Shown here: piece after piece, positions 57,001 through 60,000 of the stretch
How the letters are laid out: each line of letters starts with the position of its first letter
Position numbering within the stretch: the first letter of the stretch is position 1
NCBI RefSeq assembly: GCF_030013205.1
Contig: NZ_CP122648.1
Direction: 5' to 3' (one strand)
Origin: Escherichia coli
GTDB taxonomy: Bacteria; Pseudomonadota; Gammaproteobacteria; Enterobacterales; Enterobacteriaceae
Length of the DNA stretch: 64,000 bases
Position numbers: made by a program

Positions 57001-60000
57001 AACTGACCGCAACACATCATTTAGATAACGAACAAGTGTATAAATTCCTGAGTGCCAAAAATAGAACGTCCAGCCATGTTTTATACCATGTTATGGCGAA
57101 TGGTGATGCCGACATGCTGAAAGTTGTTTTGGACGCGTTACCTTTGTTAATTCGCACATGTCATTTGACTAAAGAACAGGTACTCGATCTCCTGAAGGCA
57201 AAGGATTTTTATGGTTACCCGGGGCTATACCTGGCGATGCAAAATGGGCATAGCGATATCGTGAGAGTTATACTCGAAGCATTGCCCTGTCTGGCCCAGG
57301 AAATTAACATTTCCGCTTCTGATATTGTAGATCTTCTGACCGCCAAAAATCTTGCGCGCGACACGGGTTTGTTTATAGCCATGCAGCGCGGACATATGAA
57401 CGTTATTAAGACTATTTTTAACGCATTACCCACTCTGTTTAATACGTTTAAATTCGATAAAAAAAATATGAAGACCCTCCTCCTGGCAAATAATTCTAAT
57501 GAATATCCCGGTTTGTTTTCAGCGATACAGCATAAACAACAAAACGTTGTAGAGACGGTTTATCTTGCTTTATCTGACCATGCACGCCTGTTTGGATTTA
57601 CTGCTGAAGATATTATGGATTTTTGGCAACACAAAGCGCCACAAAAATACTCTGCCTTTGAGTTGGCTTTTGAATTGGATCACCGGGTTATTGCTGAATT
57701 AATCCTTAATACGATAAATAAGATGGCTGAAAGCTTTGGCTTTACGGATAACCCTCGATACATTGCGGAGAAAAATTATATGGAAGCTTTACTCAAAAAA
57801 GCATCTCCCCATACCGTACGCTAAATCTTTGCCTGCGCCGATACGCATAAACATCTTCCACATGTCCTTCACGAATACGGTTTTGTAGTGCGCGCCAGTA
57901 ATCAGCGCGGAACAGGTCGGCGTGCATCTCTTCAAACAGCGGACCAATGCGGGGGTCGGCGCATAGCCAGTGGCGAAACTCTTCCGGGAAAACATCGCCC
58001 GGCGAGACGCTGTACCACGGTTCGCTGGCAAGTTCGTCCTCCGGGTAGCGCGGCGGCGGGATGTCGCGGAAGTTCACTTCCGTCATGTAGCAAATTTCGT
58101 CGTAATCATAAAACACCACACGCCCGTGACGGGTGACACCGAAGTTTTTAAACAGCATGTCGCCAGGGAAAATGTTAGCAGCGGCAAGCTGGCGAATAGC
58201 GTTACCGTATTCTTCAATGGCATCGCGCAACTGCTGACCTTCCACTTGTTCCAGCCAGATATTGAGCGGCACCATCCGCCGCTCAATATAAAGATGGCGA
58301 ATCACAATTTGTTCGCCGAGATCGGTGATTTTTTCCGCTGCTTCCTGGAGCAGTAATGCCATTAATGCCGGGGAAATATGCCGCTTCTCCAGCACAAAGT
58401 TTTCAAACTCCTGGGTGTCCGCCATTCGGCCCACGCGATCGTGCTCTTTCACCAGTTGATAGCAGGCGCGAACGTGAGCGGCAGACATCTCTTTCTGCGG
58501 CGCGAACTTGTCTTTGATCACTTTGAATACCCGATCAAAGCCCGGCAGCGTAAACACCAGCATCACCATGCCACGAATACCCGGCGCTTCAATGAACTGC
58601 TCATTACAGCCCTGGAGATAAACGAGATATTCGCGGTAGCTTTCGGTTTTGGCGTGCTTCTGGCAGCCGATAGCCATATACAATTCAGCGGTGGTTTTAC
58701 CTGGCAGAATTTCCCGTAGCCACTCGACCAGTGCTGCGGGCAGCGGCGCGTAAACCATAAAATAAGAACGCGCAAAGCCAAAAACAATGCTCGCTTCGGC
58801 GGTCGTCGTCAGGCAGGTATCAATAAATAACTCGCAGTCGTCCGTCTGGTGGATCGGCAGCAAAAATGGCAATGTGCCGGAAGGCGTGATCAGTTTGCCT
58901 ACCAGCCAGGCGGCTTTATTGCGGTAAAACAGTTCGTTCGCCACCTGTAAATGACTTTCCGCGAGATTGTCTGTCCCCAGCGTTTCCGTCAGATGGCGAA
59001 CGATGTAATGAATGTCACGGCTTTTATTCTGCCAACGCAGACGCAGCGGCAGATCGCTGATAACGCGCATCAGCAGAGATTCCCAGCCGTGATCGGGGTG
59101 AAAGTCTTTCGCCAGCGGGCGGGGAATGGTACGAAAACGGCGCTCTGGCTGGGAGCTAAAGATAAAAAGCCGCTCGGGAGTAAGCGAGCGGTGGTCAAAT
59201 AACCGACAGTACACGGAGTTAAAAAAGCTCTCCGCAATCTCGAAGCGCGGGTAATCCGGCAACAGCCGGGTGTAATGCTCTTTGACGCGCAGTAAAAATG
59301 CCGCGTCCGTGCTTTGGCCGTTGGTAATGCAGCGCAGTTGCTCCACGACCAGACCCACGTGATGATCGTAAAGATGGATACGGTTTTTCATCGCCTGCTG
59401 GACAGCGTGCCAGTCGGCTTGTTCGAAACGCTGCTGCGCCCCGGAAGTCACTTCGAGGAATCGACCATACTGAGCGTCGAAACCTTGCAAAATGGTTTGT
59501 GCAATCAGTAATTCCAGGCCACGCGGCATCGCCTCTCCTTAATTCGCCCCTCGCCTTACGGAAAGGGGCGTTGGTTGTTAGAACTGCGATTCTTCGGTGG
59601 AGCCGGTCAGCGCGGTGACTGAAGACGTGCCGCCCTGAATAATGGTCGTCACTTTATCGAAATAACCTGTACCCACTTCCTGCTGGTGAGATACGAAGGT
59701 ATAGCCATCTTTCGCAGCGGCAAATTCCGGCTGCTGCACTTTCTCAACGTAATGCTTCATGCCTTCGCCCTGGGCATAGGCATTTGCCAGGTCGAACATG
59801 TTAAACCACATGCTGTGGATGCCTGCCAGGGTGATGAACTGGAACTTGTAGCCCATATCCGACAGCTGCTGCTGGAAGCTGGCAATAGTTTTGTCGTCGA
59901 GGTTTTTCTGCCAGTTGAACGACGGCGAGCAGTTATAAGCCAGCAGTTTGCCCGGATATTTCGCGTGGATAGCTTGTGCAAAGCGACGCGCCAGTTCCAG

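Follow-up and report, generated by a model that had tools for sequence, protein, structure and literature searches.

Based on the analysis of a 64,000-nucleotide stretch of Escherichia coli DNA (RefSeq assembly GCF_030013205.1, contig NZ_CP122648.1; referred to as the window), it was proposed that the 32-bp tail-to-tail overlap between arpA and aceK is a by-product of the entry of arpA (espL4) into the chromosome, that is, an insertion scar and not a regulatory device. The probability of this reading was estimated at about 85%. The aceK gene, encoding isocitrate dehydrogenase kinase/phosphatase, is the last gene of the aceBAK operon. One end of an AT-rich inserted block carrying arpA lies inside the overlap, and each of the two genes draws its stop codon from the DNA of the other.

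The overlap had been noticed in a preliminary description made from the sequence alone, and the gene names, the coordinates and the 32-bp convergent arrangement given there were borne out by the list of open reading frames (ORFs), the Pfam matches and the RefSeq annotation. When the sequence was read, the arpA stop codon TAA was located at 57822-57824, and minus-strand positions 57793-57795 held the aceK stop codon TGA. The position of the arpA stop in other strains had been suggested as a check, and the identical 32-bp overlap was found in the RefSeq annotation of K-12 (L003), of a strain with an internal deletion in arpA (L004) and of a strain carrying a divergent allele (L085). The overlap sequence was the same in K-12 and in the strain with the B-type deletion, with zero substitutions against the K-12 allele. 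The divergent junction allele, from E. coli strain 2779 (NZ_CP103521.1, locus positions 3501-3641), was 91.5% identical over 141 bp and had three substitutions within the overlap, yet both stop codons and the 32-bp length were kept. The ending ...SPHTVR was common to every arpA variant retrieved, also to an allele 87% identical to that of the window, with the exception of one frameshifted variant (P0007).

The description of arpA as AT-rich was also confirmed, as the GC fraction was 0.29-0.47 over approximately 55330-57810 and 0.50-0.63 in aceK, aceA and iclR. The junction alignments delimited a block of 2,483 bp (55330-57812, both boundaries ±~3 bp) with a GC content of 37.0% against 53.5% in the flanks, which is atypical for the host chromosome. 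The block was polymorphic for presence and absence, and an intact empty site was found both in relatives and in the outgroup. The only RefSeq-annotated gene within it was arpA, as judged by the K-12 annotation, and its Pfam matches were confined to a toxin domain and ankyrin repeats. On the left side, the junction abutted the iclR stop codon and its hairpin, the island starting immediately after the hairpin and the CTTTTTC tract. On the right side, the junction (~57812|57813) fell within the overlap, and homology with the empty site started again at ~57813. The motif ACCG[T/C]ACGCTAAA was common to the occupied alleles, to arpA-less E. coli (ATCGAACGCTAAA) and to Escherichia albertii (ACCGCACGCTAAA). 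Since the DNA of 57813-57824 was present in the empty-site genomes too, the last arpA codons and the stop codon represent the ancestral 3' end of aceK, read in antisense; the arpA TAA is the antisense of the Ser-Phe codons of aceK. The aceK ending supplied by the island stands in place of the ancestral Phe-Val-stop.

The distribution of the two alleles was determined with a 3-kb query across the region, which matched 5425 of the 5426 complete E. coli genomes and revealed three classes among them; the number of genomes in the deletion class and in the arpA-less class was obtained by combining this query with a 141-bp junction query. Full-length arpA was carried by 2006 genomes and arpA with an internal deletion of ~613 bp by about 2100, and in the arpA-less class of about 1320 genomes the match began at window position 57815 or 57818. 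The junction itself was recorded in 4105 of the 5425 genomes (76%), the other ~1320 (24%) aligning with the 141-bp query only from 57815. In two E. coli loci lacking the junction (L001 and L002), iclR and aceK were convergent, their stop codons lying 16 bp apart, and aceK had a length of 1725 nt. The AceK protein of these loci, as well as that of E. albertii (L005), consisted of 574 residues and ended in ...RFSVRFV. In E. albertii, the closest of the species among the matches listed, the spacer aligned colinearly with that of the E. coli empty site and included 19 bp (GCCTCTGATTTATACGAAT) that were missing from the occupied alleles. No relative of arpA was found beside aceK in any of 80 other Enterobacterales species among the matches listed. 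As a deletion would be unable to regenerate the 19-bp spacer, the empty site was taken to be ancestral and arpA to be inserted.

The following course of events was proposed. The ancestral state would have been a convergent iclR/aceK pair with 16 bp between the stop codons and a 574-residue AceK. A single insertion, probably by illegitimate recombination, would then have replaced ~19 bp of the spacer by 2.48 kb of foreign AT-rich DNA bearing one effector-like gene, and the replaced base pairs would have taken the last two codons and the stop codon of aceK with them. Each reading frame would have crossed the right junction and continued to the first in-frame stop in the DNA of its partner. Hence, arpA would end three codons past the junction, at a TAA in the aceK antisense, and aceK ~six codons past it, at a TGA within the island, the outcome being a 578-residue AceK and a 32-bp overlap. 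Such run-on was simulated with ORFs entering from random positions, along the plus strand in the aceK DNA and along the minus strand in the island DNA. A stop codon was met after a median of 20 codons in the plus/aceK direction and of 12 codons in the minus/island direction, the median overlap was 123 bp, and overlaps of at least 32 bp arose in 94% of the trials. The observed 32 bp was therefore rather short by the chance expectation, so that no selection is needed to explain the overlap, which probably has no regulatory role. A tight insertion beside a gene can thus change the terminal codons of both genes, and the resulting overlap looks designed when it is not.

The new ending of AceK falls in a part of the protein where length and sequence vary. 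AceK proteins of other species were 574-598 residues long among the matches listed, with unrelated tails past the conserved ...RQRFSVR[Y/F], and the AceK construct of PDB entry 4p69 ends at residue 571. Judging from these comparisons, the segment past the conserved motif is apparently unconstrained in the family, and for this reason the new tail would have been tolerated and is probably neutral. The 578-residue protein of the window had Pfam matches to PF20423 and PF06315 (regulatory and kinase domains, E-values of 1e-110 to 1e-121) and, with few substitutions, aligned over its full length with the chains of PDB entries 3lc6 and 3eps. The place of aceK at the end of aceBAK was supported by the adjoining window ORFs, which occupied the RefSeq aceA and aceB positions of related strains.

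The opposite polarity was also considered, by which arpA would be ancestral in E. coli, the empty site of the B2/F type would have arisen by deletion, and the 574-residue AceK would be derived. The arpA-positive lineages are indeed the majority, with 76% of the complete genomes, a loss of arpA by deletion is possible at this locus, as strain HS-02 (L086) shows, and horizontal transfer of the region between some strains of phylogroup D has been regarded as probable (PMC7656184). However, the arpA-less E. coli genomes agree base for base with E. albertii in the layout, in the 19-bp spacer and in the Phe-Val-stop ending, all of which are missing from the occupied alleles. The clear secondary deletion in HS-02 has a different appearance, as the filler is other DNA and the C-terminus of AceK is damaged, and the AT-rich composition marks the block as foreign. 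An ancestral arpA was thus considered highly unlikely. A sequencing error that displaces a stop codon, raised in the preliminary description as a point that would speak against the overlap, would find some support in the run of six A residues (57795-57800) inside the overlap and in the frameshift of P0007 close by. Such an annotation or assembly artefact was found to be virtually without probability, as the junction is present in 4105 complete genomes, the overlap is identical in K-12 and in the strain with the B-type deletion, the AceK chains of PDB entries 3lc6 and 3eps have the same 578 residues with the GEMLF ending, and the Clermont primer ArpA1.r, which dates from 2013, matches this sequence exactly. 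Sequencing error as the source of the overlap was accordingly ruled out by the number of genomes, the PDB chains and the identity with K-12.

Four observations weigh against the insertion-scar reading. Signatures of mobility were lacking, since no tRNA was found in 50000-64000, no integrase was detected and no pair of repeats corresponded to the two ends of the island. The alignments of distant arpA relatives stopped at ~residue 600-650 and left the last ~80 residues of arpA uncovered. In the scan of other species, E. albertii was the sole Escherichia among the matches listed, the cryptic clades and Escherichia fergusonii lying outside the comparison. Finally, the mRNA of ECs4935/EspL4 was detectable in O157:H7 and rose modestly under sulfamethoxazole-trimethoprim (SMX-TM) drug stress (PMC5931665). 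The last observation also favors a cis-antisense function, in which read-through from arpA would extend into the aceK 3' end and aceBAK transcripts into arpA, with collision of RNA polymerases or formation of RNA duplexes lowering the expression of AceK or arpA. No terminator-like site was found near the overlap on either strand by a consensus scan, thus leaving none between either stop codon and the body of the partner gene, and any arpA transcript must therefore enter aceK antisense. Additionally, aceK expression in BL21(DE3) was unusually low and prematurely terminated (PMC5435950). However, in the same data set arpA showed no expression whatsoever, while aceBAK varied with the conditions (PMC5435950), so the low aceK expression needs no arpA transcription. 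In K-12, arpA contains an internal H-NS-bound "promoter island" and was classed as foreign (PMC3661553), and the number of promoter-like sites in the region (9) did not exceed the expectation from shuffled sequence (9.8). The aceBAK operon occurs without arpA in about a quarter of the E. coli genomes and in all outgroups examined, and in about half of the genomes with arpA the gene bears the internal deletion, a finding at odds with strong selection on arpA. Antisense regulation was hence considered unlikely.

An overlap of ORFs by itself carries no information on transcription. The convergent transcription and the antisense interference with the end of the aceBAK transcript, both deduced from the overlap in the preliminary description, found no support, given a silent arpA in BL21(DE3) and the lack of a terminator, an unusual structure or an Rfam family at the junction. 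The preliminary description did not recognize the overlap as the probable junction of a horizontally acquired insertion, nor as the target of the Clermont marker. The RNA downstream of each stop codon folded no better than shuffled sequence (z of +1.28 and +0.21), and no Rfam family was matched at the junction at E-values up to 1. The literature search on Rho-dependent termination or antisense RNA for arpA returned irrelevant matches only.

A more specific scheme can be drawn, although it is very improbable. If the silencing by H-NS were lifted, for instance by stress or within the host, arpA transcripts lacking a terminator might run antisense into aceK and lower AceK in the arpA-positive phylogroups only, and, separately, the 578- and 574-residue tails might differ in kinase/phosphatase balance. 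If true, the expression of an effector-like gene would be tied to the control of the glyoxylate shunt, which would thus have a lineage-specific input.

The features of the region are collected in the Table.

Table. Features of the iclR-arpA-aceK region in the window, with positions, strands and the data on which they rest.
Feature	Position	Strand	Basis or remark
iclR, left neighbor of the insertion	54497..55321	+	RefSeq annotation transferred from K-12 (L003)
Terminator-like hairpin at the iclR end and CTTTTTC tract	55299..55329	+	Consensus scan, left-junction alignment; present in both alleles
AT-rich inserted block, arpA and upstream region	55330..57812		Junction alignments, composition, empty-site loci L001/L002/L005
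arpA (RefSeq espL4), 728-residue ShET2/EspL-family protein with ankyrin repeats	55638..57824	+	ORF (ATG start), Pfam, RefSeq
aceK, isocitrate dehydrogenase kinase/phosphatase, 578-residue form	57793..59529	-	ORF (ATG start); Pfam AceK_kinase and AceK_regulatory; PDB match
Tail-to-tail overlap of coding sequences	57793..57824		32 bp; ORF list and sequence read
aceK end: two bases of Tyr573, Gly-Glu-Met-Leu-Phe, TGA	57793..57812	-	Island DNA
arpA last codons Thr-Val-Arg and TAA, also in empty-site genomes	57813..57824	+	Junction alignment
Primer ArpA1.r site	57804..57823	+	Exact match
Primer AceK.f site	58184..58203	-	Exact match

The locus is the target of the aceK-arpA marker of Clermont 2013. 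The primer sequences ArpA1.r (TCTCCCCATACCGTACGCTA) and AceK.f and the 400-bp product of the Clermont quadruplex polymerase chain reaction have been published (PMC10716328, PMC5219782), and the amplicon predicted in the window (57804-58203) had the published length of 400 bp. The ArpA1.r site lay within the overlap, across the insertion junction, and because the primer spans the junction it is specific for occupied sites. The polymorphism, with 76% of the sites occupied and 24% empty, is what the assay reads. In the Clermont scheme, arpA is scored as missing in phylogroups B2 and F and as present in A, B1, C, D and E. The strain ECOR44 was mistyped because one base of the primer site is substituted (PMC7656184), and the effect of that substitution was ascribed to the location of ArpA1.r on the junction. 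The overlap was also visible in the K-12 marker coordinates quoted in the same study (aceK_arpA at 4218596-4222487, arpA start at 4220301; PMC7656184). In the phylotyping papers other than Clermont 2004 and 2013, no mention was found of a junction-spanning primer or of swapped stop codons. Both the overlap and the junction are thus already known, being annotated in RefSeq and used as a phylotyping target. The overlap is of little importance in itself, as it is reference-annotated and its junction is in daily phylotyping use.

The protein encoded by arpA was assigned to the ShET2/EspL family. A Toxin_15 match (PF07906, ShET2 N-terminal) covered residues 130-379 with an E-value of 2.8e-96 and was followed by ankyrin repeats, and the RefSeq product name was "type III secretion system effector EspL4" (espL4). 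In O157 Sakai, ECs4935 has been listed as EspL4, an older label being "regulator of acetyl CoA synthetase" (PMC5931665). When ArpA was aligned with six distant relatives, its C155 was invariant within a CRHLA motif (IVCRHLA), and H243 and D268 lay within the NHAMAVRL (in a longer form, NHAMAVRLRI) and FYDPN motifs, respectively. These three residues are presumably equivalent to the catalytic triad of EspL. On the basis of these motifs, ArpA could be an active cysteine protease, even in strains such as K-12, which are not known to have a working type III system. Members of the effector family are characterized by type III translocation and by cleavage of host RHIM proteins. The literature search on EspL4 translocation returned no study testing EspL4, the only useful match being the O157 expression table. 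A word-indexed search for arpA homologues gave E. coli arpA variants only, and the relatives found outside E. coli arpA by an exhaustive HMMER search were 28-37% identical.

The similarity of arpA and of the arpA-aceK pair to known systems was evaluated. The arpA block resembles the H-NS-silenced AT-rich islets of E. coli K-12 in its low GC content, its single virulence-like gene, its lineage polymorphism and the H-NS-bound promoter island reported in arpA (PMC3661553). In contrast to such islets, it is very small (2.5 kb), lacks an integrase, a tRNA target and flanking repeats, and fits so tightly that the 3' ends of its own gene and of the neighboring gene were rewritten. With the ShET2/EspL effector cysteine proteases (EspL, EspL2, OspD3/SenA), arpA shares Toxin_15, the ankyrin repeats and the Cys/His/Asp motifs; it differs in that the identity to its nearest relatives is 28-37% and the published expression is silent or weak. 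The arpA-aceK pair is like the excludon-type or cis-antisense pairs in the tail-to-tail overlap of coding sequences and in the lack of a terminator between the genes. However, the excludon-type pairs are defined by mutually interfering transcripts with an effect on expression, whereas arpA-aceK is known here from the overlap of its coding sequences, and the published evidence found points to a silent arpA partner (PMC5435950).

Several variants of arpA were recorded. The internal deletion of ~613 bp lies in the ankyrin-repeat region, at approximately 56780-57400 of the window (positions 3017-3050 of locus L004), and B strains are included among its carriers. The annotation of the deleted gene varied between a "frameshifted" pseudogene (L004) and an in-frame product of 524 residues (P0006). 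Another variant (P0002) encoded 734 residues and was 87% identical to the arpA of the window. The divergence of P0002 and of the junction allele of strain 2779 fits published remarks on a complex recombination history at this locus. The ending of the 545-residue variant P0007 was consistent with a deletion of 1 nt near 57801, where a run of six A residues is followed by G (57795-57801). Such a deletion would add 21 arpA codons into the aceK antisense and change the last residues of AceK.

Further features were recorded at the ends of the inserted block and of aceK. A hairpin with a 7-bp stem, GGGCAGA GGCAATAT TCTGCCC (55331-55352), opens the island directly after the terminator-like hairpin of iclR. 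A rare third iclR-aceK junction allele without arpA was found in E. coli HS-02 (NZ_CP172818.1, positions 2900-3080 of locus L086). It had a different filler DNA, GCTACGATACCAAACGCCAC, between the genes, and its aceK was annotated as 1767 nt long and overlapped iclR by 47 bp. The predicted AceK C-terminus, ...YAYRRGVWYRSEKVSAFHRTPASLPSPL, was without the conserved RQRFSVRY motif, and by its sequence this allele looks like a secondary deletion cutting into aceK. Across Enterobacterales, the aceK 3' ends of loci L006-L044 (~5700-5800 in each locus) pointed to the AceK C-terminus as a hot spot of change. Several tails of Citrobacter, Kluyvera and Pseudocitrobacter (ETDRRPDKALAPPSGNVRRA) looked like translated repetitive extragenic palindromic (REP)-type repeats (GCCGGATAAGGCG...) inserted at the stop codon. 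The aceK and iclR products of a record titled Edwardsiella ictaluri ATCC 33202 (contig00205, L014) were 90% and 91% identical to the E. coli proteins, respectively. These values are unexpected for Edwardsiella, as the identity for Yersinia or Serratia was ~75%, well below those of L014, which suggests contamination, mislabelling or transfer in this record.

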